In this document: piece by piece, positions 2,165 to 60,562 of the stretch | Layout: each line of letters opens with the position of its first letter | Position numbering within the stretch: position 1 is the first letter of the stretch | NCBI GenBank assembly: GCA_021785435.1 | Contig: JAJYFE010000002.1 | Span: 7,978 to 71,977, forward strand | DNA length: 64,000 nucleotides | Origin: Planctomycetota bacterium | Lineage (GTDB): Bacteria > Planctomycetota > Phycisphaerae > WQYP01 | Direction: 5' to 3' | Position numbers and translations under genes: made by a program | The notes under the pieces: model-generated | What the model saw: only the letters and a program-made list of their open reading frames with translations | What the model was told of the DNA's origin: nothing | Databases searched by the model: none

Positions 2165-3241
2165 TCAGCTTTCGGTGTTTCGATGGGCGCGTTCCAGCGC
2201 TCTGGCGATCAGCGCCAAGCTTTCTTGTTTGAGCCGCAGGCAGGTCCGCCGAGACGCCGCCTGAAGCTGTCGGGACGGCTCGCCCCCCGCTCGATGCCGG
2301 CCGGCTTCGGAAATCTCCGACGCGCTGGTGGCGGCGTCAGGGCTATCACCAAGGTCTGGCGCACCGCCGTCGGGAGTGGATATGGCGTCAGGATACAAGA
2401 TTCCCAGCGGTTCGACCCGCAATGGCACGTCAAAAATGGCGATGTGATCCGGCGTCATGCACCGTCCAGAGCCGTGAATCGCCACCGGTACGATTGGACA
2501 ATTCGTGCGCGCCGCCAGCAGAAACGCCCCATCGTGGAATCTTCCCAGGCGTCCGTTACGCGAACGCGTTCCCTCCGGAAAGACGTATAAACTAACGCCC
2601 CGGCGCAGGCTTTCCGCGGCCTGTTCCAGCACGTCGGCGTGTTGGACGTGCAAATGGCCGCACAGCTTCATTAGAGCGCCCAGAAAGGGCATCCGAAACG
2701 GCCAGTTCTTAGCCCAGCAGCGGGCGTCCGGCGGCAATTGCAGCAGCAACAGAATGTCAATGGCCGATTGATGGTTCGCCACCAGAATGCAAGGCTGCGG
2801 AACCGCCCGCCAGTCGAACGGCGCGATCCATAGATTCCGACCGCAGAAACCGTGCATTCCGTGGCGGTACAGCGCCCGCACGATGCGCCGCGCCAGGCGC
2901 CGGTCCCGATCCCACCACTGATTGAACACCCACAGCCATGGCCCCAGCACCACCACAAAAAAGACCAGATACGTGGCAAACCATCCAAACACTTGTACGC
3001 TGCGCAACACGACGCGCCAAGTTACACGGGCCGGCTGGAATCCCGTCGGCGGCGCCGGCCGTGGTGAACCGGCGCCGGGCTGGGCCGTCCCCAAAGATGC
3101 CGACGCCACGACGGCGCACACCGCGTGCCGGCTACCAGACCTGCCGCCGCGGGGCCGTCCGCAGGTGCAACTTGCCTTCACTGAAGGCGGCCGCAGCGGC
3201 CTCGCTCCAAGAACGGCAGCTAGTCCACGAAACGGAAACAT
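2165..3241 (-). CDS. Membrane-anchored lysophospholipid acyltransferase (PlsC/LPLAT family)
   Basis: The NHQSAIDILLL (HX4D) and FPEGTRS motifs are present. A TM segment precedes the catalytic domain. AAGGTG lies upstream of the ATG at 3241. Confidence 0.6.
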   Translation of the reverse strand: MFPFRGLAAVLGARPLRPPSVKASCTCGRPRGGRSGSRHAVCAVVASASLGTAQPGAGSPRPAPPTGFQPARVTWRVVLRSVQVFGWFATYLVFFVVVLGPWLWVFNQWWDRDRRLARRIVRALYRHGMHGFCGRNLWIAPFDWRAVPQPCILVANHQSAIDILLLLQLPPDARCWAKNWPFRMPFLGALMKLCGHLHVQHADVLEQAAESLRRGVSLYVFPEGTRSRNGRLGRFHDGAFLLAARTNCPIVPVAIHGSGRCMTPDHIAIFDVPLRVEPLGILYPDAISTPDGGAPDLGDSPDAATSASEISEAGRHRAGGEPSRQLQAASRRTCLRLKQESLALIARALERAHRNTES

Positions 3242-3419: not shown

Positions 3420-3525
3420 CTGGAGTTTCGTCGCCCCCGGCGACTTTGGGGCTAGGTGGTACGCGGGGTTTTGAGTTCATAGCCCGGAGGTCGCCATGGG
3501 CGACGAAACTGCAGCGATGGGTGGT
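3420..3525. repeat. Head-to-head pair of ~47-bp family-1 palindromic elements (cores GTCGCCCCCGGCGAC at 3430-3444 and GTCGCCATGGGCGAC at 3490-3504)
   Basis: The two units are reverse complements of each other. The same unit recurs at 10040-10085 and 19048-19095. Confidence 0.6.
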
Positions 3526-4732: not shown

Positions 4733-4872
4733 TCCCCGCCGGCTGGTTTCATCGGCGGCCATGGTTATTTCCAATTATCATAGCGCCGCCAGGTCGCCAC
4801 TGGGATGCCATTAGGCGACTCGACCAAGGCCTGCTCGTCCCCCGGCGCGGTGACCGGTGTTCGGCACTATCT

Positions 4873-10039: not shown

Positions 10040-10085
10040 TTCATAGCCTGGAGGTCGCCGTGGGCGACTAAACTGCAATGGTGGG
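10040..10085. repeat. Family-1 palindromic element, single copy (core GTCGCCGTGGGCGAC at 10054-10068)
   Basis: Aligns to the reverse complement of the 3421-3468 unit. Confidence 0.55.
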
Positions 10086-10368: not shown

Positions 10369-11397
10369 GCCACGCCCTGCTGGCGACATGGTGGAACGCG
10401 GTGGAACGCTGTAGCGTTATGGGTCCTGTTCGCCTGGGCGAGCGCCTCGGTGGGCGCCGCTCCAGTGGTCCGCTCCACCCCACCGCCGCCGGCGAACCTC
10501 CCCGCCCACCCCCACCCGGAAACTCTGGTCCAACCTCTTAAAGTTCCGCCCGCCTCCGGCGGGGCCAGCGGTCTGCCGGTGGCCGCCGTGCGAACCAACG
10601 CAGCCTCCCGGCTCGCCACGGCAAGCCGGCCGATCCCCTCGCCGCCAGCCCTGCGTGAAGGCATGATGATCGTCCATGCTGCGGGCCTTCTGGTGCCCGC
10701 GCGGGGGGCGCGGTATGCGCGTTTCCAGTTTATCCTGCCTCCGCGGCGCTGGCCGCCGCGGGTAAGACTGTTACCCTGTCTGGCCCTCGCCGCCATGCAG
10801 ACTGCCGCGTCCAGGCGCCACCACGCCATTTTTGTCATCGACGGCCAAGTCCTGGTTTATAGGAGGAAAATTTACGTTTTGCCTTCGGCCAACATTCGCT
10901 GGCGCTGGACGCCACGGAGATCGACCGTCCGTGCGGGGCCGCACCCGGCAATCCAGATGGGCGCCGCCAGCGCCGGAAATCCCGAGGGGGTGCTACGAAG
11001 CCTCCTTAGGCACCACCTCCAGCGGCCGCTGGCGGCAATGAATCCAAGTCGAGCGGCCACACGGGTAAAGGCGATTCTGCCGTCGCCCGTGCCTGGAGCG
11101 CCGCTCACATGGCCGGCGCGGCCGCAAGAAAGCTATTTATGGAATCGCCGCGGTCGTCTGCTCTACAATCCGGCGGACCAAGACTGGTTATTGCAACTGC
11201 GCGCGCCCGACCATCTCCTACCCGGCGCCACGTTGATCCTGTTGCCCTGCCGCCTGCTGGCGGTGATGCGCCGACGGGCCGGCGCGAGGGTCAGCCCCCT
11301 GACGTTTCGCGTCAGTGGCCGGATTACCCAGTACCGACATCGCAATTATCTGTTGCTGACCTACGTGCACGTGTTCCATAACTTGGGCCGATTTTAA
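10363..11397 (+). CDS. Hypothetical secreted protein (signal-peptide-like N-terminus WNAVALWVLFAWASASVGAAP)
   Basis: Long ORF with Arg/Pro-biased composition and no recognisable domain. The start overlaps the right inverted end of the MITE-like element, so this could be spurious. Confidence 0.3.
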   Translation, partial: FMATPCWRHGGTRWNAVALWVLFAWASASVGAAPVVRSTPPPPANLPAHPHPETLVQPLKVPPASGGASGLPVAAVRTNAASRLATASRPIPSPPALREGMMIVHAAGLLVPARGARYARFQFILPPRRWPPRVRLLPCLALAAMQTAASRRHHAIFVIDGQVLVYRRKIYVLPSANIRWRWTPRRSTVRAGPHPAIQMGAASAGNPEGVLRSLLRHHLQRPLAAMNPSRAATRVKAILPSPVPGAPLTWPARPQESYLWNRRGRLLYNPADQDWLLQLRAPDHLLPGATLILLPCRLLAVMRRRAGARVSPLTFRVSGRITQYRHRNYLLLTYVHVFHNLGRF

Positions 11398-13415
11398 CGC
11401 GCGTGGGCGCCATCTTCAGCGCGGCGTTTAAGGTTCATGATCGCCTGCATGATTGTCTCGGCGACGTGCTGCAATACTTCACGCTCCCTATGTCGGGAGC
11501 GCCATTCGTCAAACCGCAGGGGCGCACCGAAATACACCCGCACATTGGCGCGGCGGAAATAATCGTCCGCCAGCGACCGGTGCCGACGGGTCCCGTGAAT
11601 ATACACCGGCACCACCGGCGCCCCGGAAAGCAGGGCCAGCATGGCCACGCCCAATTCCGGCGCGCGCAGCACGTGATCCACGCTCAGCGCGCCTTCCGGA
11701 AAGATGCCCACCACCGAGCCTTCCCGCAGCGCCTGTACCGCGGCGAGCACGGCGACCGGATCATGGCCGCTGCGGTCCACGGGAATAGCGCCGTCCAGGC
11801 GGCAGGACCACGCCACCAGCGGCCCAATGGCAGGCAGACGGTAGGAAGCGCGATCCACCATGAAACGAATCAGACGGCGGCGACTGGCCAGCAGCAGCAG
11901 CAGCGGATCCAGGGTGCTGGTATGGTTGGCCGCCACAATCGCCGCACCGGTCGCGGGAATGCGGCAGGCCCCGGCCAGCCGCCAGCGATGCCAGAATCTT
12001 ATATACATGGAGATCAGACGCAGCAGGAAGGCCTGCCGCAGGGGCAGCGGTTGACGGCGCATGTAAAGGACGACCAGCACCGCCCCCAGCGCCGCCGTTC
12101 CGTAGGCTGTCGCCACCACCAGATCGTGCACATACGCATCCACATTCGGCCACATCGCCAGGGGCACGGTCATCATCACCAGGCCCAGCGTGGTGGCCAT
12201 ATCGCGCACCGCCATCACGCGCCCACGGACGTAATCCGGCACCACGCGCTGCAACAGGGTGTCCACGCTGCTGAACATGATAGCGCCGAAGAAAGCCCCG
12301 CTTACCAGATAGGCCAACAACATCTCCCAGTGGCTGGCCCACGAAGCCAGCAGAAGACTGCCGCCCATCAGCACCGTGGACCAGGCAATGCCCAGCTCTT
12401 TCGGAATACCCTGCCGCGCCTGGCTGATCGCCGCGGCGCCAGCCACCATCCCCGCCCCCGCCAGCCCCATAAAAATTCCGAAATCCTGTGGAGGTAAATG
12501 AAAACGTTGCGTTAAAATGCTCGGCAGGCTGTTGAACACCACGGAACTGATTGTGAAAAAGACCATCTCCAGGCCAATCACTTGAAAAGGCCGCTTATGC
12601 CGCCGCAAATAGGCCACGCCTGGCCCGATATCGCGCCACAGTTTGCCTGGGCTGGTTGAACGGCCTTCGGCTGTCGCCGCAGCCTTTTCCACAGCCGGCT
12701 CGCCCAACGGCGAGGCCGGCTCGCCCAGCGGTTTCCCGGCCGTCAACGGCCGCGGTGGGCGCATCAGCGCCAGGCCGCCGGCCGAAAGTAGGAAAGCCGC
12801 GCCATCGACGTATAGGGCGTAATCGAGCCGCCAGGCGACCAACACCCCGCCGGCGATGAACCCGAGCAGCGAAAAGATCGTCCCGGCGGTGGTAATCATG
12901 GCGTTGGCCTGCAGCAGTTGCCGTGGATGCACCAGATTGGGCAAAATGGCGGCACGGGCCACGTAGAAGAATTCTCCCACACTCGACAGGATGATTTCCG
13001 AGCCAAACAAAAGAATCAGCAGAGTAGTCAGGGGCAGCCAATGCCCGGCGGCGCCCGCCAACAGCACCGTGCGGGCCAGAAACACCAGACCAGCGCGAAC
13101 CAGGTCAGCGGTGATCATGATGCTGCGCCGCGGCCAACGGTCGGAAAGTATTCCGGCCAGCGGAGCCACGGCCAGGAAGGGTAGAAACATCGCCAGGTTC
13201 AACTGGGCGGTCTGCTGGGAGCCGATGTGGTGCTGGCGCAACAGAACGATGCAAAGCAGTTGGAGCATCACCAGCCAGTGCACGCGATCGGCCAGCGCGG
13301 ACACGACATAGCTCAACCAAAGCAAAATGAAGTTACGATTTTTGCCCAACGACGGGAAATCTTGCAGCAACGGCGCAACGGTCAGCTCGGACGAGACCTG
13401 GGGCTGGGTCATCAT
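11394..13415 (-). CDS. MFS lysophospholipid transporter (LplT-like) fused to a C-terminal PlsC-type acyltransferase
   Basis: 12 TM helices in the N-terminal half. The C-terminal half has the NHTSTLDPLLL (HX4D) and FPEGALS motifs. Start at the ATGATG at 13415 (MMTQPQV). Confidence 0.75.
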   Translation of the reverse strand: MMTQPQVSSELTVAPLLQDFPSLGKNRNFILLWLSYVVSALADRVHWLVMLQLLCIVLLRQHHIGSQQTAQLNLAMFLPFLAVAPLAGILSDRWPRRSIMITADLVRAGLVFLARTVLLAGAAGHWLPLTTLLILLFGSEIILSSVGEFFYVARAAILPNLVHPRQLLQANAMITTAGTIFSLLGFIAGGVLVAWRLDYALYVDGAAFLLSAGGLALMRPPRPLTAGKPLGEPASPLGEPAVEKAAATAEGRSTSPGKLWRDIGPGVAYLRRHKRPFQVIGLEMVFFTISSVVFNSLPSILTQRFHLPPQDFGIFMGLAGAGMVAGAAAISQARQGIPKELGIAWSTVLMGGSLLLASWASHWEMLLAYLVSGAFFGAIMFSSVDTLLQRVVPDYVRGRVMAVRDMATTLGLVMMTVPLAMWPNVDAYVHDLVVATAYGTAALGAVLVVLYMRRQPLPLRQAFLLRLISMYIRFWHRWRLAGACRIPATGAAIVAANHTSTLDPLLLLLASRRRLIRFMVDRASYRLPAIGPLVAWSCRLDGAIPVDRSGHDPVAVLAAVQALREGSVVGIFPEGALSVDHVLRAPELGVAMLALLSGAPVVPVYIHGTRRHRSLADDYFRRANVRVYFGAPLRFDEWRSRHREREVLQHVAETIMQAIMNLKRRAEDGAHAR

Positions 13416-13529
13416 GGTTCCGTCTACAGACTTCTGGCCCACTCCAAGATAACCGAGCCAACAGCGATGAACCAGTGCATGGTCGCCGCCGCCGGGGTGG
13501 CTGACCGATTTGGCGAACGAGACCACCGC

Positions 13530-13730
13530 CGCGTAAGGTCGAAACCATCGCGGCCGGATCCAGCGGACCACCCCTTCGGAGACAGCTTTCCAGGCCGCCA
13601 GTCTTGGACCGAGTCGGGCAAGTCGCCTCAGTTTTACCCGCTGCCGCGCGGCGACTCCCTGCCGCGAGATACCCGATCCCCTGGAGGTCTTCCAACCATG
13701 TCTCAATTTTCAAGTGCGCGCGGTGTCGCG
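13530..13730. repeat. Structured ~200-bp repeat, copy A (homologous to 51120-51315)
   Basis: About 75% identity to copy B. Shared blocks: GAAACCATCGCGGCCGG, TTCCAGGCCGCC, ACCCGCTGCCGCG, CTTCCAACCATGTCTCAAT and AAGTGCGCGCGGT. Confidence 0.55.
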
Positions 13731-13893
13731 AACTTTCCAGTTCGCCCGCCTTCCAGTTCGCCCCTTTCGTGCAGCGGGGTACCCCGCGCGGCGCAGCAGG
13801 AAGGCGCCGGTCTGGCCCAGCGGCAGTTTGGACAGACGCCCGGAATAAACCTTAAGATGATACAGACGATGACGAGCAGGCTTAGGAGTTAAC

Positions 13894-14604
13894 ATGCCCG
13901 CACCACCGATTCTGGCCATTCAGCACGTTCCATGTGAAACCATCGGGGCTATTTCCGGTGCGCTCGCCGCCGCGGGTTTGTCCGCGCAGATCTGCGAAAT
14001 TTTTGCTGGTCAAACCCCGCCGCGGACGTTGGACGGCTATGCCGGACTGATCATTATGGGTGGGCCGATGAGTGTGTACGAATCAAACCGCTATCCCTTT
14101 ATCCGGGATGAGCTGCGCCTGCTTGAGGCGGGCCTCCACGCCGGGAAAGCCATTTTAGGCGTCTGTCTGGGCAGTCAACTTCTGGCCGCGGCGCTCGGAG
14201 CGAAAGTGGTTCCAGGGCCGACGAAGGAAATCGGCTGGTATCCGGTGCGCAAACTCCCTGCCGCCGCGGACGACCCCTTACTGGCGGAACTACCGGCGAG
14301 TTTCACTGCGCTGCATTGGCACGGCGATATTTTTGAGTGCCCGTTTGGCAGCACCGCCTTGCTGTCCTCCGACCTGACCGCGTGCCAGGGGTTTCGGCAC
14401 GGCAGCCGCGCATATGGTCTGCTCTGCCACTTGGAAGTCACCTGCCCGCAACTTATCCGCATGGTAACCACGTTCCGGGAGGAACTGGGCCAAAGCCGGA
14501 TTTCAGGTGAAAATATCCTCAAGCAGGCGCCAGCGTATATGATTGATCTGGAAAAATACGCCGGGCAGGTCTTTTCCCGCTGGACGGCCTTGGTTTCGTC
14601 ATAA
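13894..14604 (+). CDS. Class I glutamine amidotransferase-like protein
   Basis: GATase1 nucleophile elbow GVCLGSQLL and a HWHGD motif. AGGAG RBS upstream of the ATG. Confidence 0.7.
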   Translation: MPAPPILAIQHVPCETIGAISGALAAAGLSAQICEIFAGQTPPRTLDGYAGLIIMGGPMSVYESNRYPFIRDELRLLEAGLHAGKAILGVCLGSQLLAAALGAKVVPGPTKEIGWYPVRKLPAAADDPLLAELPASFTALHWHGDIFECPFGSTALLSSDLTACQGFRHGSRAYGLLCHLEVTCPQLIRMVTTFREELGQSRISGENILKQAPAYMIDLEKYAGQVFSRWTALVSS

Positions 14605-14645: not shown

Positions 14646-14785
14646 CAAAAGAGCCCCGGCCCCGCCACTGAACCCGAAGCACTGGCTCTCGGGTCGCCGT
14701 GGCGAGTCGCTCGCGGCGACCCGGTGAATGGCGGCGACCGTGGCGCCCGAAAGCTAAGTGGTGAACAGAGCACTGGCCCCAACCC
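14646..14785. repeat. Family-2 dispersed gene-end element
   Basis: AAAGAGCCCC...GAACCCGAAGCAC...[GC-rich hairpin]...CCGGTGAATGG...CCCGAAAGCTAAGTGGTGA...AGCACTGGCCCC. Homologous to 30490-30605 and 56608-56755. Confidence 0.5.
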
Positions 14786-19047: not shown

Positions 19048-19095
19048 TTTAGTCGCCCGCGGCGACTTTGGGGCTATGTGGTACGCGACCAAGAG
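19048..19095. repeat. Family-1 palindromic element (core GTCGCCCGCGGCGAC at 19052-19066)
   Basis: CTGCAGTTTAGTCGCCCGCGGCGACTTTGGGGCTATGTGGTACGCG aligns with 3421-3468. Confidence 0.55.
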
Positions 19096-44102: not shown

Positions 44103-47100
44103 TCAAAGCGGCCTCGCCTCTAACGGCAACCTTAAAATATCCGGCGCAAGGCTGGCGTCCAATCCACCCGCTAGCCGGGACGTGGGGCTGGCTCCCGGCG
44201 GAGAAACCGTGCCGAAGCTCGCGGTGGAAATCGGCCCGCCGGAGAAATCCCCCGCTGGCAGGATCCAATATGCGCTACCGCCGAACGACGCGACGACCCG
44301 GACGGCGCCCGAGGTCGTCGAACGGGCCAGCGCCGAGCCGATCGCCGAATCGAAGGCAAGCGCACTACCGTTGCCCGCAACCCCGGCCCCGGCGCGACCA
44401 AGCGGGACCCCTACCTGTGCGGCGGGCCCGTAGCCGCTATTCAATGAGCCAGCGTGTGTCCGGCTCGTGCCCTGGCTGCTCTGCGGGACCGCGGTCGCGC
44501 TAACCACACCCGGTACCAGGAGGTTCGCTATCGGGCTGCCCAAGCCGGTGACCAAGTCGTACCCGGGGCCAGCGTAGTAGCCGTTATAGCCGCTGGTAAT
44601 GTCGTGGAAATCCGTGCTTGGGAGATTATAAAGTGCAGATAGGGTCTGGCCCGAAGAGAGAGAGCCGTCACCCAAAGACGCCCGGCCCTGGTCGACGAGC
44701 GCTACCAGGCCAGCCCACATGGGACAAGCCAGGCTCGTACCGCCCTCCTCTCTATTTATCCACGGTGCCGCTGATCCATAGTCGTAGGAGTCATAGATCG
44801 GCACGCCAGTGGCTGGATCGGCGTCCATCGAGACATCGGGCGTGGTTCGGTACCCAGAACCTAGCCCGTTGGTCTTGCCGCTCTGGTAGGCTGGCTGCGG
44901 TTCGCTTTGGCTGATCCCGCCACCCCCGGCGATCGCTGGATTCCACGAGTCGCTTCCCAGGCTCCAGCCCACCTCGCCACCCCAACTATACCCGCCGCTG
45001 CCATTCGCGTTGACAGTGAGCGTCGTTCCCCCGACCGCGACCACATTGGGCGAATAAGCTGGGTAATTGCCGGGCGCTCCCTGGTCCCCCGTCGAAGCGA
45101 GGAACGTGACTCCACCCGCCAAGCCGGAGCCGCCCGTGTGCCCGGGAGGCGTCACCAGAAGTTTATCGTAACTCGGTTCATATGACCACCACAAGGTCGT
45201 CAGGTCCGACTCAGGCTCGCCCCAGCTCATGGAAACCGCGACGACCCCATTCAACGATGCCGCGGTCTGCACGGCGGTATAAAGGTCGCCAGCAGAGCTA
45301 TTCGCCTCGACGAGCACGATATTGGCGTCCGGCGCGATGACGTGCGCCCATTCGACGTCAAGGGATTCCTCGCTGGTCCAGCTACCGCCATCGGACGGCA
45401 ACTCCGATGAACCACCATCCTGGTTGACCACGGAAAGCGTCGGGCCGCCTGCCGTACCGAACTGCGGCAGACCAAATTCAGCGCTAAACGCATTGGCATC
45501 GGCAACAATGTAGGGATCGTTGTACGCATCGACGATAGCGATCGTCTGGCCCTGCCCGTAAGCCGGCGTACCGCCAAAATTAATCGTGCTGGCGCCATAG
45601 GCGCCCAGACCATACGCCTCCCGCATTTGCGTCGGCGTCAGTCCGGACGGCGTGGTGCTGCCTGGGCCCAGAGCGGGGAGTATGGCCGTAGCGACATTCG
45701 AGACTAAACCCGTGCCGGGGTTGCTTACGGTAACTTCAATGGTATCGCCCGGCTGAGCTTGGTAAGGCCAGTCGCCATACGCCCAACCGCTGAACCCCGC
45801 AACCGTTAACTCTGAGTCGGTCCAATTCGTCACCTCCAGGCCAACAGCATCGCCCGTGCCGCCAGCGTGGAAGTCTTGCGTGACATCGTACACGTCGATG
45901 TACGGGCTTGTGCCGTCGAAAGCTGCCTGCGAGCCGAAGCCGCTGCCACTGATCGTGAGGTCATCATTGTAGTACCAGAGAAACTCGGTTGGCGAACCGG
46001 GAGCAACGCCTGATATCGCTGGTGACTGGGCAGCCGAGTAAGCCGCCAGGTACGGTACCAGCAGGTTGGCCTTGGGGGTTCCCAGGCCTGTCTCATCCTG
46101 ATAGCCGTATTTGGCGTACTGGGAGCCGGCGCTGTTGAGGTAGAAGTCGCTCGCGGAGGCGGTGTACAAGGCGGGCAACGTTTGTGCGTTTCCCGTGAGC
46201 GTCGGCAGACCAGCGTCTGCACGCCCCTGATCCGCCAACGCAATCAGACCGGCCCACTGCGGCGCGCCGGCGCTGGTCCCCAGAACGGCCTCCCAGCCGC
46301 TGCTGGTGTAGATAGCGTACGGCTTAGCGCAGTATGACACGTCCGGGGTGGAGCGGTCGGAGGTGTCGGAGAGGCCGTTGGCGCCCTGTTGATAGCTTGG
46401 CTGCGGCTCGTACTGGCTGGTACCCCAAGCAGTGCCCTGATAGGGACCGTTGCCATCGTGCCAGGCGCTCTCACCACCGGATGGATAGTCGCCCGCAGCA
46501 TCCAGCCCACCGGTCGCCGAAGGGCCGTTAAACACCGTGCCGCCGACGGATAAAACATTGCCTGAAGCGGACGGCCAGTTCACCGTGTTCCATTGGTCGC
46601 CGGCGGCGGCGACGAACGTGACACCGCTCGTTGCGAACGCGGAGTCGAGGGATGTTTCCGTCGCACCACCCCAAAGGGAATCGGACGAATTCCATTCCCG
46701 CCACCCGAGGCTCATCGACACAACCGACGGACTAAAGTTCAGCGCGGTTTTCACAGCGTTCGCTAGATCCACAGGGCTATATGCGCCAATCTGAGGGAGG
46801 CCCCGCCAGGTCCAACCGACCCACGCACTGCTGTCTTCCTCCACTACGACGATTTTCGCGGCCGGCGCCACGGCGTGCGCCCACTCAACGTCAAGCACGT
46901 TTTCCAGTCCATCGCCCGAATCGTTGCCGCAGTTTTCAGTGTCGGGATTATACTGGCCGGGCGAAAGCACGTTGCCGTTTTGGTCGGTTACCGTCAGCCA
47001 GGTACTGGCACCACCGTAGGTGCCATACAGGTTATCGCCATTGGCCGCCTTCATGTTGTAGTCAAACGCGTTCACATCTGCGTAAAGGTTTAGATCGTTG

Positions 47101-50309: not shown

Positions 50310-50927
50310 CTAACGCATCGCCGCGATGATGTCAGGCACGGCCCGCTTCATCGCGTCCTGCAGTGCCGCGGCTATGCCTTTCTCGTAGTCGGCGGTGGAC
50401 ATGAACCCGCTCAGACGCGGCTGGCTGACATCACCCTCATACTCTTTATTCAGGACGATAGCCCCGCCCTTCCTCACGGTCAGCGTGAACCTTACCGTGC
50501 TGTGGATGACGTACTGATAGTCGTCCGAAAATATTTTCAGCACAGTGCCGCTGACGACGACCGCGTCGCGGGCCTGTTGGCGCCGATCGACGAGTTGCAC
50601 GCGGCAGCCGGCATGGGTCAACTCGGCCGCCAGGGCTCTGGCCACCCAGCCGCCGGCCGAGTTCGGCTTCTTCAGCTCGATCTGCCCGATCTGCAGCGCC
50701 AGTCGCTGCGCGGCCACCGCCTTCTTGTTTTTGCGGGCGTCCGCGAAACGCGCGACGGAGAGCGCCTTGCCCTGGGCCGCCGCGTTAGGCGGCGTAATGG
50801 GCGCGGGATACGTCAGCCGCACCAGTCCGGCACCGCATCCGGCCAGACCCACCAGGCTCAGCGTGACCAGCACGCCAGGCTCAGCCGTCCGAAGAATTCG
50901 ACCGATCATGGTAAATCCGCTATGCAA
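50310..50927 (-). CDS. Lipoprotein of unknown function
   Basis: Signal peptide plus lipobox LVGLAGCGAG. 205 aa. No recognised domain. Confidence 0.55.
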   Translation of the reverse strand: MHSGFTMIGRILRTAEPGVLVTLSLVGLAGCGAGLVRLTYPAPITPPNAAAQGKALSVARFADARKNKKAVAAQRLALQIGQIELKKPNSAGGWVARALAAELTHAGCRVQLVDRRQQARDAVVVSGTVLKIFSDDYQYVIHSTVRFTLTVRKGGAIVLNKEYEGDVSQPRLSGFMSTADYEKGIAAALQDAMKRAVPDIIAAMR

Positions 50928-51119
50928 GCCGCGATTTTGAATCCTCGCCCCTTATCCACTTACAACTTCCGCCGCGAAAGGTTACAAGGCGCTTACGGAC
51001 CACCGGACCGGAATATTAAGAACCTCGCCGATTATCGTCAGGTCAGGATATTTGCCAAGTCGTCAATTGTGATGATATCACTAAGCGGTCGGCGATCAGC
51101 GGTCAGCACTTATACCACA

Positions 51120-51315
51120 GGCACGTAAGATTGAAACCATCGCGGCCGGGGCCAGCGGACCGCCCATTGGGGGGCGGCCTTCCAGGCCGCCATGGCCTCG
51201 GGTCGAATCGGGCAGGCCGCCACAGTTTAACCGCTGCCGCGGAGCGACTCGCCGCGGCGAGATGCCCGCCCCCATGCGGGCCTTCCAACCATGTCTCAAT
51301 CTTTAAGTGCGCGCG
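51120..51315. repeat. Structured ~200-bp repeat, copy B (homologous to 13530-13730), preceded by a family-5 front segment at 51040-51110
   Basis: See copy A. The 51040-51110 stretch (CAATTGTGATGA...CGGCGATCAGCGG) is homologous to 50213-50290. Confidence 0.55.
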
Positions 51316-51814
51316 GTATGGCATCCGGCATTTGGCGTCCGCGTCTCAATCTGGACGTTGATCCGGGCCGTGGGCTGACCCACGGCCTGTTGGTCGGGAC
51401 CGCCACGGATCTGATGCCGCTGGTGCTTTTCGTGATAACGTATACTCGGTGCGGCCACCAATGATACATCCTTGTGAAGGCAAGAAGAGTATCTATACCG
51501 CCCCGGTGCGCCGGGATACCGCCTGCTGTTGTCGCGCTGGCGATGCAGGCAAGATGCCTGCGGTACAAGGGACTGCGCCGTCGATTGGCCTCATTCGGGG
51601 GCGAGCGAAGTATAGATACCCTATTCGGCCGCGCAGATAGCCGATGACACGGCCGACCCGAAACGAAACTTGCTCTCCCTGGGCGGAACCTCCGGAGAAC
51701 CCACCGCCTCAAAGCGCCGCAGACCGCGCTACAAGCCGGGGTTCTCCAGGACCGCCCCGGAATGGCAAGCGCTCGTGGCATGGCCACTGACGACCCAGGG
51801 GCGATCAGGGAAAC

Positions 51815-51900
51815 GGAGAGAGTGGGATTCGAACCCACGTCGCACTTGCGCACGAACCGGTTTTCGAAACCGGCGCCTTCAGCCGCTCAGCCATCTCTCC
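51815..51900 (-). tRNA. tRNA-Ser (anticodon CGA), class II with long variable arm
   Basis: Reverse complement reads GGAGAGA-TG-GCTGAGCGGCTGAAGGCG-CCGGT-TTCGAAA-ACCGG-[TTCGTGCGCAAGTGCGACG]-TGGG-TTCGAAT-CCCA-CTCTCTCC. 7-bp acceptor stem, T-loop TTCGAAT, anticodon loop uuCGAaa. Confidence 0.85.
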
Positions 51901-52027
51901 ACGGCCGCCACGGGCGGTGAGCTAAGTTGTATTTTCAGCCATTCCACCGTCTGCGCCAAGCGCCCTGTCTCCCAACCGCTGCCGCCGCCCGCGCAGCCCC
52001 CCGCCGGGACTGAAAAGTGAAAACGGT

Positions 52028-58372: not shown

Positions 58373-58424
58373 GGTTCCATCCTAACGCTTACCCGCGAGC
58401 CTGGCGAGAGCGAAGGTGCACTTC

Positions 58425-58525
58425 TATAATACTATGGGGTTCGCCAGGGGGAGCGCCGATGCTTAACTGAGCATACACCCTTGGAATCCCAGCGCGCCGG
58501 GATTTGTACCGGTGTAAGGAACGCG
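58425..58525 (+). ncRNA. TPP (THI-box) riboswitch
   Basis: ACTATGGGGTTCGCC...CTGAGCATACACCCTTGGAATCC...GGGATTTGTACCGGTGTAAGGAA matches the THI-box cores (CUGAGA, ACCCUU-GAAYC, GUAAGGGA-like). A perfect TATAAT lies at 58425-58430 just upstream. thiC is downstream. Confidence 0.7.
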
Positions 58526-58810
58526 AGCCCATGGCTCCCGCAAAGGTCACCCGCTGGCCGGCCTTCCCATTACGCCGCAGGTTCGCCGGCGCGGCTTTTC
58601 GGCCCCTTACCAGGGTAACTGGGACGCCGCCCCCGATCGAAGAGTCGCCGTGGAGACCCGCTGTCCGCCCCGCCAACGGCCGGGCAGGTCGCCAGGGGGC
58701 GACTCGCAGACTGGCAAGCTTTGTCGAGTCGCCCCGAAGGGTTCTCCGTGGCGACTTGGTGGCGACCAGGCGCTGCCGATGGGCAACGCCGATTTTCAGG
58801 AGTCGCACTC

Positions 58811-60562
58811 ATGTCCGTATCCGCCTCATCGCACCGTTGCAACGGTCGCCCTCCGGTGACGCAGCTGGAATTCGCGCAGGCCGGAATGATTACGCCACAG
58901 GTGCGCCGCGTGGCGCAGCGTGAAGCCCAAACACCGGAGTTTATCCGCCAGGAGGTCGCCCGGGGTCGGCTGGTTATTCCCGCCAACATCCGCCATCTGC
59001 AGGGTACCGAGGGACAGGCCGGCGTCTCTTCGCCCCTGCGGATTGACTATCCGCCTCCTGCAGACCGCGGCCATCCCGGAGCCGAAAATGCCGCCGCCCA
59101 ACTTTGGGTTAATCAAACCGTCGCCCAGCGCACCGCGGCCCTGGCCGATGCCGAAACGCTCCGCGGCTGCGCTGCGCCGTGCCGCCTCGATCCCACCGGC
59201 ATCGGTCGCCTGATCACCACCAAAATCAACGCCAACATCGGCGCCTCGCCCGTCAGCAGCGGTACGCGGGAGGAAGTTGAAAAACTCCAGTGGGCCCAGA
59301 AATTCGGCGCCGATACGCTCATGGACCTCTCCACCGGCGGCAACCTGCTCCAGTGCCGCCAGGCCATCATCGATCACAGCACCATCCCCATCGGCACCGT
59401 TCCTATCTATTCCATGATCATCGGCCGACGCCTTGAAGAACTTACCTATGCCATGATCCTCGCGGAAATCGAACGCCAGGCCCAACAGGGCGTCGATTAT
59501 TTCACCATTCATGCCGGCGTGCTCCGGGAGCATCTGCCGCTGATTAAAAATCGCCTCACCGGCATCGTCAGCCGCGGCGGAAGCCTGCTCGCCAAGTGGA
59601 TGATCCATCATGGCCGCCAGAATCCTATGTATGAATTGTTCGATGAAATCTCCGCTATCATGCGGCAATACGATGTAACCTATTCGCTCGGCGACGGCTT
59701 GCGCCCCGGCTGCCTGGCCGACGCCACCGACGCGGCCCAGTTGGCCGAATTGCAAACCTTGGGCGAACTGGTGCAGCGGGCGCGGGAAGCGGGCGTGCAG
59801 GTTATGGTGGAAGGCCCGGGGCATATTCCTCTGGATCAAATTGCGGTGAATATGCAGTTGGAGCAGCGAATTTGCGATGACGCCCCATTTTATGTATTAG
59901 GCCCCCTGACCACCGATGTTTTCCCCGGTTACGACCACATCACCAGCGCTATTGGGGCCGCCGAAGCGGCGCGGGCGGGCGCGGCTATGCTCTGTTACGT
60001 CACCCCCAAAGAGCATGTCGGTCTGCCCAAGGCGCAGGATGTCAAGGCCGGGTGCATTGCTTATAAAATCGCCGCCCACGCCGGCGATCTGGCCCGGGGC
60101 ATCGCTTCGGCCCGACAGTGGGATGACGATATGTCCCGGGCCCGCGCTGCCCTGAATTGGCCGAAAATGTTCGAGCTGGCCTTCGACGGCGAAACCGCCC
60201 GGGCCTTGCACGATGAAGACCTCGACGCCGACACGGATTTCTGCGCCATGTGCGGCCACGATTGGTGCTCCATGCGCATCAGCAAGGAAATTCAGGAATT
60301 TGCCAGCGGCAAAGATCCTGCGTTCCAGCCGTCGAAAAAGTCGGCTGTCTCCAGCGGTTTAACCAAGGATGGCGCCGAACTTCTCCGCCAGCGCGGCGTA
60401 ATCACCGAACGGCAAATCCAGGCCTTGGTGCATAAAGGCCGTAAGGCCCCGTGCCATAGCGACTTGGTGGCCGACCCCGCCCAAGCCCAGCTGGTCCAGT
60501 TAAATGCCGTGAAATCCGGTTCTACGGCATCCCCCGCCACCCCTGCGTCGGTCAATGCATAG
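58811..60562 (+). CDS. thiC: Phosphomethylpyrimidine synthase
   Basis: Conservation throughout ([40 protein letters not shown]). Start at the ATG at 58811 with a CAGGAG RBS; the ORF-track start is a TTG at 58721. Confidence 0.9.

Follow-up and report, generated by a model that had tools for sequence, protein, structure and literature searches.

A small dispersed family of structured 208-nt repeats in Phycisphaerae, possibly MITE-like and acting at the RNA level

The window analyzed here, a stretch of 64,000 nt from a bacterium of the Planctomycetota (class Phycisphaerae, contig JAJYFE010000002.1), harbors two copies of an element of about 208 nt, both read from the minus strand. Copy A occupies positions 13520–13726 (207 nt, read from 13726 to 13520) and is bounded by ACACC and GGUCU; copy B occupies positions 51112–51319 (208 nt, read from 51319 to 51112) and is bounded by AUACC and GGUAU. 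An earlier inspection of the DNA without database searches, in the following termed the sequence-only reading, had described the pair as repeats of roughly 200 bp with ~75% identity. The pair was recovered at these sites by blastn with an E-value of 2e-47, and homology continues slightly past the limits proposed earlier. The identity, however, had been set too low, since blastn gives 81.0% over 195 nt (13532–13724 with 51124–51317) and an alignment with MAFFT a mean column identity of 84%, interrupted by one 2-nt and one 1-nt indel. The true limits were set by comparison with additional copies, those of copy A by homology to copies B, D and E described below. Within the window a third copy was detected neither by blastn nor by nhmmer. 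A and B exactly share the 19-mer CTTCCAACCATGTCTCAAT and the 17-mer GAAACCATCGCGGCCGG, neither of which has any further match in the window, even if three mismatches are allowed (expectation for the 19-mer, 0.01). TTCCAGGCCGCC and AAGTGCGCGCGGT are likewise identical in both copies, so that these four blocks stand as the sequence-only reading had listed them, whereas its block ACCCGCTGCCGCG carries a single mismatch in copy B.

Copy A is flanked by two genes. Downstream lies a gene on the minus strand (11394–13412) encoding a 672-aa fusion of an LplT-like transporter of the major facilitator superfamily (MFS) with an acyltransferase (Pfam MFS_1, MFS_3 and Acyltransferase), whose start at 13412 is about 105 nt away from the end of the element. 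On the other side, a gene for a class I glutamine amidotransferase (13894–14604, plus strand; Pfam GATase) is oriented divergently. Copy B is embedded between features that all share its strand, namely tRNA-Ser(CGA) at 51813–51901, found by both Rfam and ARAGORN about 500 nt upstream, and a gene for a 199-aa LptE-like lipoprotein (50310–50909; Pfam LptE, 24.9 bits at a cut-off of 23), which starts at 50909, about 200 nt downstream of the element, and is called in seven contigs. Between copy B and this gene a sigma-70-like promoter candidate, TTGGCA-16-GATAAT, is located at 51031–51058 on the minus strand (a consensus match alone, 10/12 positions). Directly 5' of copy A in the minus sense, at 13733–13765, a direct repeat comprises two units of GGCGAACTGGAA, and the element motif AGATTGAGAC recurs at 51345–51354, some 45 nt beyond the 5' end of copy B.

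The family extends beyond the window. The amidotransferase encoded next to copy A has its nearest named relatives in Phycisphaerae, and an identical protein is found on a contig of the metagenome-assembled genome (MAG) GCA_027429555.1 as well as in several ENA and Logan assemblies. Additional copies comprise A2, the counterpart of copy A in another strain, copy C on contig DAICGJ010000122 (L069), copy D on contig L070, and the orthologous copies E and E2 (97.7% identity) on contigs L071 and L072. Since copy C belongs to the same MAG as the window, and the source samples of D and E also contain A2 or B, the window population probably carries at least five copies. Two diverged copies, L042 and L047, are both present in Planctomycetota bacterium YP1.bin19. 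The element is thus dispersed over seven non-orthologous loci, a number that is a lower bound, and its paralogues are 78–87% identical. Copy C differs in that about 37 nt of its 3' domain are duplicated in tandem and its 3' end is degenerate.

Because gene callers often translate elements of this kind, proteins were also searched with translations of the element. A profile of the sense-frame peptide retrieved four true clusters (P0121–P0124) from 1.84e9 representative proteins, together with three false positives from repeat proteins, and a six-frame search with the core peptide led via P0121 to contig L062. This contig was not counted as a separate copy, as it joins the locus of copy C (94% identity to L069) inside the core to the locus of L042 (98.5%). 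The junction falls at 3157–3221, within 65 nt of shared core, and may reflect either an assembly chimera or a recombinant between copies. At the DNA level, a first pattern of two blocks, which would miss even A2, found no match among the GTDB species representatives. A core pattern based on the loops gave 39 matches there, two of which, L042 and L047, are homologous by blastn and belong to one species. JGI metagenomes, IMG/VR, plasmids and phages yielded no homologues.

The surroundings of these copies are diverse. Copy C is flanked on its own strand by genes for a PEP-CTERM protein and a prepilin-type protein, and copy D lies divergent to a gene for a LacI-family regulator. Copy E is located within a gene-free stretch of about 2 kb, with an MmeI-like methyltransferase gene 930 nt downstream. 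L042 is divergent to a gene for a XylR-type regulator and is followed by about 670 nt without an open reading frame (ORF). L047 is found antisense inside a 487-aa ORF for a PDZ protein (1179–2642 of its contig); here, the GC periodicity of codon positions disappears over about 300 nt around the element (~1950–2250) and returns in the same frame. An in-frame insertion is possible, but at a contig coverage of only about 1.7x a frameshift error may also be responsible. Across the loci examined no protein gene recurs beside the element. In all four loci with a downstream gene (A, B, C and E) the sense strand of the element is that of the gene, which is suggestive at most. Copies C, D and E are preceded, at a distance of 10–50 nt on the element strand, by T-rich tracts or by hairpins that resemble terminators and carry T-runs (L069 5065–5090, L070 660–690, L071 1530–1560); A and B lack such features. 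Beside copy D, the 5' end of the LacI-family gene is duplicated in tandem together with an operator-like region (L070 301–432 and 529–660, period about 228 nt). On the same contig a perfect 15-bp inverted repeat, CCTATGGAGTCTGTC/GACAGACTCCATAGG (898–912 and 1034–1048), encloses 120 AT-rich nt; it starts within the 3' end of copy D and may represent another small inserted element.

Alignment folding bears out the fold potential proposed by the sequence-only reading and places it on the minus strand, which is also the strand of the adjacent genes. For six full-length copies, alifold predicts -78.0 kcal/mol on the minus strand (z -2.9, with 0 of 200 column shuffles reaching as low) and -68.6 kcal/mol on the plus strand (z -2.3); for three sequences the respective energies are -74.5 and -62.9 kcal/mol. 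The predicted helices are rich in G-U pairs, and as each of these would be an A-C mismatch on the opposite strand, the minus strand is favored. G-U pairs occur in 23 pair columns and A-C in five, all of which belong to the terminal helices P0 and P1, and in the interior helices the ratio is 16 to 0, a contrast that is inflated, as the minus strand had served for choosing the helices. Of the 390 pair cells of the six copies, 93.6% are paired.

According to this model, the imperfect terminal inverted repeats of about 27 nt form a long closing stem, P0-P1-P2. In copy B, the 5' terminal arm (51293–51319) carries P0, P0b (GCAC) and P1 and would pair with the 3' arm (51112–51137), giving rise to the outermost helix P0 (AUACCGCG/UGUGGUAU), P0b (GCAC/GUGC) and P1 (AAGAUUGAGAC/GUUUCAAUCUU), followed by P2 (GGUUGG/CCGGCC). 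If the 30 terminal bases are compared with the reverse complement of the other end, 23 of 30 agree in copy B, about 20 in D and E and about 17 in copy A, whose arms at 13700–13726 and 13520–13545 accordingly pair more weakly, with two A-C mismatches in P1. Further inside, P3 is traced as a short hairpin of a C-run and a G-run. The 3' domain (51153–51192 in copy B) is predicted to consist of helix H-c (UGGCGG/CCGCUG), the internal loop CCUGGAAG and the hairpin P6 (GCCGCCC/GGGCGGU); in copy A (13561–13600) the same H-c and P6 are found, the latter with four G-U pairs. All six variable pair columns of this domain remain paired through G-U or A-U changes. An alternative proposed by RNAalifold for the same region, an 8-bp hairpin GGCGGCCU/AGGCCGCC with a GGA loop, was not adopted, as it entails three A-C events and the combination of H-c and P6 none.

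The pattern of substitutions points in the same direction. In A2, a U-G pair of P2 has become C-G and a U-G pair of H-c U-A, copy D has U-A instead of U-G in P2, copy E has A-U instead of G-U in H-c, and P-b, a helix of the core, carries G-U pairs in copies B, C and D. Such one-sided conversions between G-U and Watson-Crick pairs in P2, P-b, H-c and P6 match the expectation for a fold of the minus strand. A single compensatory change, from G-C to U-A, is present in helix P-d of L047.

Enclosed by the closing stem is a core of about 60 nt. Its predicted elements are helix P-d (CGGGCA/UGCCCG), hairpin 1 (CUCGC-NNNN-GCGAG), helix P-b (UCGCC/GGCGA), hairpin 2 (CCGC-GGCA-GCGG) and a 9-nt single strand. 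In copy A (13615–13675) P-d reads CGGGUA/UGCCCG and encloses hairpin 1 with the sequence CUCGC-GGCA-GGGAG; P-b is UCGCC/GGCGA, hairpin 2 GCGC-GGCA-GCGG and the single strand GUAAAACUGA. The corresponding segments of copy B (51209–51268) are CGGGCA/UGCCCG, CUCGC-CGCG-GCGAG, UCGCU/GGCGG with two G-U pairs, CCGC-GGCA-GCGG and UUAAACUGU. The stems inside the core are near-invariant, whereas both 4-nt loops vary (GGCA, CGCG, CGCA or CACA in hairpin 1; GGCA, GGAA or GGCG in hairpin 2), as does the single strand (AAACUGA, AAACUGU, AAACUGG or AAACGGU). A second core model from RNAalifold with a 9-bp helix, UCGCCGCAG/CUGUGGCGA, was likewise not adopted, since variable positions of A, D and E that are placed in loops by the model described here would turn into mismatches. 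Similarly, several of the local hairpins named by the sequence-only reading, such as GCCCGC..GCGGGC in copy B, compete with the better supported long-range helix CGGGCA/UGCCCG. Outside the core, short end motifs are also kept across species, AYACC..CGC at the 5' and ACG..UGUGGU at the 3' end.

None of the known RNA families accounts for the element, in agreement with the failure of the sequence-only reading to match one by eye. With the gathering thresholds of Rfam 15, tRNA-Ser is the only hit in the entire window, and searches at relaxed thresholds, E<=10 for A and B and E<=1 for D, E2, L047 and L062, returned noise, the best matches to short fragments having E-values of 1.8–8. ARAGORN reported tRNA-Ser(CGA) alone and no transfer-messenger RNA in the window, and the literature, as far as searched, contains no description of the family. 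The family is thus new to Rfam, while structured interspersed repeats are familiar as a kind. In length and branching the element resembles a riboswitch aptamer or 6S RNA, but no Rfam family, including 6S, riboswitches, ribozymes and HEARO/omega-type RNAs, scores above noise.

ORFs overlap both copies on the minus strand (13333–13713 and 51103–51324), and the sequence-only reading rightly regarded their KIETWLE peptides as spurious, the element being non-coding. A small protein was considered, including one from a plus-strand ORF beginning MSQ(F/S) that ends at the amidotransferase start, and rejected: the indels of 1 nt and 2 nt that distinguish A from B put every reading frame out of register, substitutions fall evenly on all three phases without three-base periodicity, and the conserved ATG block of the plus-strand ORF opens a mere nine codons in L062. 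The sense-frame peptide shared by B, C, D and E was rejected as a protein in view of the frameshifts and the absent codon periodicity. The two copies were also considered as attachment sites or direct repeats of a 37-kb island next to tRNA-Ser. This was dismissed, given that there is no compositional shift, the repeats are only 81% identical and 500 nt away from the tRNA, and further members of the family are found elsewhere. A template and variable repeat pair of a diversity-generating retroelement does not fit either, as no reverse transcriptase is found, both copies lie between genes and their differences are not confined to adenines. A CsrA sponge was discarded since only two GGA motifs are conserved, neither of them in a supported loop.

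Taken together, copies A and B are tentatively interpreted as members of a small dispersed family of structured repeats of about 208 nt that resemble a miniature inverted-repeat transposable element (MITE), are confined to a narrow lineage of Phycisphaerae and act at the RNA level. The element would once have been mobile and would now be an old, largely immobile interspersed repeat, whose sense-strand transcript is kept folded by selection. In such a transcript the termini would pair into the closing stem P0-P1-P2, and the interior helices would be arranged around the core with P-d, two similar hairpins of 4–5 bp with 4-nt loops, P-b and the 9-nt single strand. If transcribed with or near the neighboring genes, the closing duplex, which in copy B comprises about 23 bp and is long enough to make this conceivable, could be an RNase III-type substrate and the element a determinant of processing or stability. 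Alternatively, the fold may serve as a protein-binding module, though not as a metabolite sensor.

Precedents for such an element exist. ERIC/IRU repeats of enterobacteria and the Correia elements (CREE/NEMIS) of Neisseria are interspersed repeats of 100–160 bp with inverted termini, which fold as RNA when co-transcribed. The present family shares with them the size class, the long terminal duplex, the intergenic dispersal beside unrelated genes and the co-orientation with genes, and by analogy cleavage of its duplex by RNase III or RNase E appears plausible. In contrast to these repeats, to which it has no sequence relation, it is represented by a handful of copies instead of tens to hundreds, it has a multi-branched interior with a core that outlasts the termini, and its hosts are Phycisphaerae. 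Moreover, the duplication of TA that characterizes Correia elements could not be demonstrated here.

With respect to mobility, the sequence-only reading, which had offered a MITE as an alternative, is borne out in the imperfect inverted termini and the dispersal of the copies, though not in the dozens of copies that a pure MITE would be expected to have. The copies are diverged paralogues rather than numerous and near-identical, and the termini are not conserved as well as the interior, of which the core alone is kept between species. TA brackets copies B and E, but inside the conserved ATACC and GGTAT ends, and copy A shows CA and TC at the same columns. Apart from the element copies, the end motif ATACCGCGCGC has three unrelated matches in the recovered loci. 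In four of five other assemblies with the lipoprotein gene, the contig (L064, L065, L066 and L068) starts inside copy B, at positions corresponding to 51249, 51165, 51140 and 51123. Either branching of the assembly graph at a repeat or a rearrangement at the strain level could explain these contig starts.

Several observations weigh against a MITE origin combined with a selected RNA fold. No clear target-site duplication can be made out, a transposase with matching ends is absent from all recovered loci, the copy number is low, and between the window organism and YP1.bin19 the core (~60–70 nt) is kept better than the termini. Between copies A and A2, 9 of 231 positions inside the element differ, but only 2 of 246 in the intergenic flanks, which is contrary to the prediction of strong purifying selection. 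Energies of single-sequence folds are ordinary on both strands (z +1.2 to -0.8), and P1 is unevenly kept, with two uncompensated transversions in E and A-C mismatches in A and D. In none of the pairs of the six full-length copies have both partners changed, and shuffle controls are not exceeded; the one compensatory pair gained by adding the YP1.bin19 copies is equalled by 74 of 500 shuffles. As covariation is not significant in comparison with shuffle controls, the fold is not statistically proven; a strand-specific fold of the minus strand is nevertheless plausible as a model, even with the G-U to A-C contrast inflated by helix choice.

These points leave room for other functional RNAs. On the whole unlikely, but to be taken seriously, is a family of paralogous small RNA (sRNA) genes of about 210 nt with transcription of their own, in which the ends would protect the molecule and the core would bind a protein or carry the seed GUAAACUGU. 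A core that is near-identical across species within a divergent periphery is the pattern of a functional RNA and not of a transposon, for which the ends count most, and the strand-specific pairing and the low copy number (four clusters in 1.84e9 representative proteins, two core matches in one GTDB species) fit as well. The absence of a downstream gene within about 670 nt in L042/L062 and the gene-free region of 2 kb around E agree with independent transcription, and the terminator-like hairpins or T-runs before C, D and E would insulate these copies from transcription upstream. Yet consensus scans, which planctomycete promoters with their possible departure from the sigma-70 consensus may escape, detected neither a promoter nor an intrinsic terminator at the borders of any copy, and the upstream flanks share no motif. 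Known multicopy sRNA families (Qrr, csRNAs, CcsR/cuckoo RNAs) are shorter, have recognizable promoters and terminators and keep an invariant single-stranded seed. The element resembles them in that a genome contains several paralogues, diverged but with stems and core conserved, but its loops and candidate seed differ among copies; in addition, the 3' end of copy C is degenerate and L047 lies inside, and antisense to, an ORF. That the paralogues are functional genes for structured non-coding RNAs (~210 nt) of a new class peculiar to a Phycisphaerae clade, with a core that binds protein or ligand or is catalytic, is clearly unlikely. Very improbable is a riboswitch or protein-binding attenuator that controls envelope genes as a cis-regulatory leader, a cis-regulatory RNA having been one of the two candidates of the sequence-only reading. 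This explanation draws on the position of A and B 105 nt and about 200 nt upstream of same-strand envelope-lipid genes (LplT-acyltransferase and LptE), to which copy C upstream of a prepilin-type gene may be added, and on the conserved core, which includes a junction and a single strand that is likewise conserved. A leader dedicated to the two adjacent genes is contradicted by the remaining copies, which adjoin a methyltransferase gene 930 nt away, divergent regulators of the LacI and XylR type or no gene at all, or reside within an ORF. Since no set of functionally related genes is consistently preceded by the element, a gene-specific riboswitch is disfavored. No terminator or sequestration of the start site, as expected of an expression platform, is apparent downstream of A or B, the promoter-like site intervenes between B and its gene, no riboswitch of Rfam matches at E<=10, and variation affects loops, not stems, as well as the junction strand.

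Two further explanations dispense with an RNA function. Improbable is an element acting as DNA, with single-stranded hairpins recognized by a recombinase or by a tyrosine transposase associated with repetitive extragenic palindromes (REP); it would be a composite relative, like a bacterial interspersed mosaic element (BIME), of the short GTCGCC..GGCGAC palindromes scattered through this genome, or else a recombination hot spot. The window is indeed enriched in palindromes of the type GTCGCC-N(3–60)-GGCGAC, of which there are 12 against about 1.3 in mononucleotide shuffles (~9-fold) and one of which is helix P-b of the element; the 8-mer GAGTCGCC occurs nine times against 2.8 expected, and a second repeat family is built from the same motif. 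Since hairpins of DNA tolerate G-T pairs, the strand bias is no proof of RNA, and junctions and contig breaks inside the element as well as its faster divergence between strains relative to the flanks would suit recombination, but contig breaks and the chimeric contig may be assembly artifacts arising at any repeat. Neither a recombinase nor a Y1 transposase gene is found near any copy. Despite the shared palindrome GTCGCC..GGCGAC, which the second family chains in alternating orientation, REP units measure 20–40 nt and are far shorter and simpler than this 208-nt composite with defined ends. Quite improbable, finally, is a decaying selfish MITE without host function, the fold of which would be a by-product of inverted termini and GC-rich palindromes. 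Neutral decay predicts equal numbers of G-U and A-C, at odds with the 16 to 0 of the interior helices, and fails to account for a core that is nearly unchanged between species while the ends drift; no target-site duplication can be made out, and near-identical copies that would signal recent movement are missing. The imperfect inverted termini, the dispersed and diverged copies, the degenerate and internally duplicated copy C, the non-significant covariation, the fact that both strands out-fold shuffled alignments and the raised strain divergence of the element are all consistent with such decay. On balance, the interpretation as a formerly mobile, MITE-like repeat with a role at the RNA level is retained, tentatively as stated.

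The palindromes mentioned above (for example at 3430–3444, 3490–3504, 4793–4819, 10054–10068, 14693–14720, 19052–19066, 46596–46613 and 58644–58755) look like a genome-wide REP-like hairpin motif. The second repeat family is represented at 58666–58733 of the window, upstream of thiC, and at L071 2414–2481 (88% identity over 68 nt). It consists of a chain of overlapping GGCGACTCG/CGAGTCGCC hairpins in alternating orientation and shares the modules CGGGCA.., CGAGUCGCCCCG and GUGGCGACYUG with the element core. On the same contig, two tandem units of 39 nt (2634–2711), each a hairpin GGCGACTCG-ACAAGG-CGAGTCGCC, are positioned directly upstream of the MmeI-like methyltransferase gene; these units are 70–76% complementary to the element core. 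Between the amidotransferase gene and a dUTPase gene, a GC-rich hairpin GGGTCGCCG...CGGCGACCC (14686–14722) encloses GGCGAGTCGCTCGCGG, a 92% match to the element core over 25 nt.

Two other features of the window were observed. The thiC gene (58721–60562; ThiC PF01964, E 5e-177) has no thiamine pyrophosphate (TPP) riboswitch in its upstream region (58373–58720) according to Rfam, even at E<=1; by eye, CUGAG...CCCUUGGAAUCCCAGCG near 58460–58490 might be a divergent one. Between both copies of the element, the region 25820–49856 contains genes for HlyD-type and outer-membrane efflux (OEP) proteins next to three giant ORFs (2288, 1160 and 1917 aa), of which the third has Kelch/beta-propeller matches, giving the appearance of a type I secretion-like system for very large substrates.

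Non-coding elements of Planctomycetota, especially of uncultured Phycisphaerae, are almost uncharted. Even if the family described here were a decaying repeat, it explains spurious ORF calls that have placed KIETWLE-like peptides in public protein databases and, in metagenomic assemblies of the lineage, the breaking of contigs and one or more chimeric contigs. Should the fold prove functional, the element would constitute a lineage-specific RNA module, which could affect envelope genes such as those for the LplT-acyltransferase and LptE and could also act as a recombination-prone and assembly-breaking repeat in these genomes.

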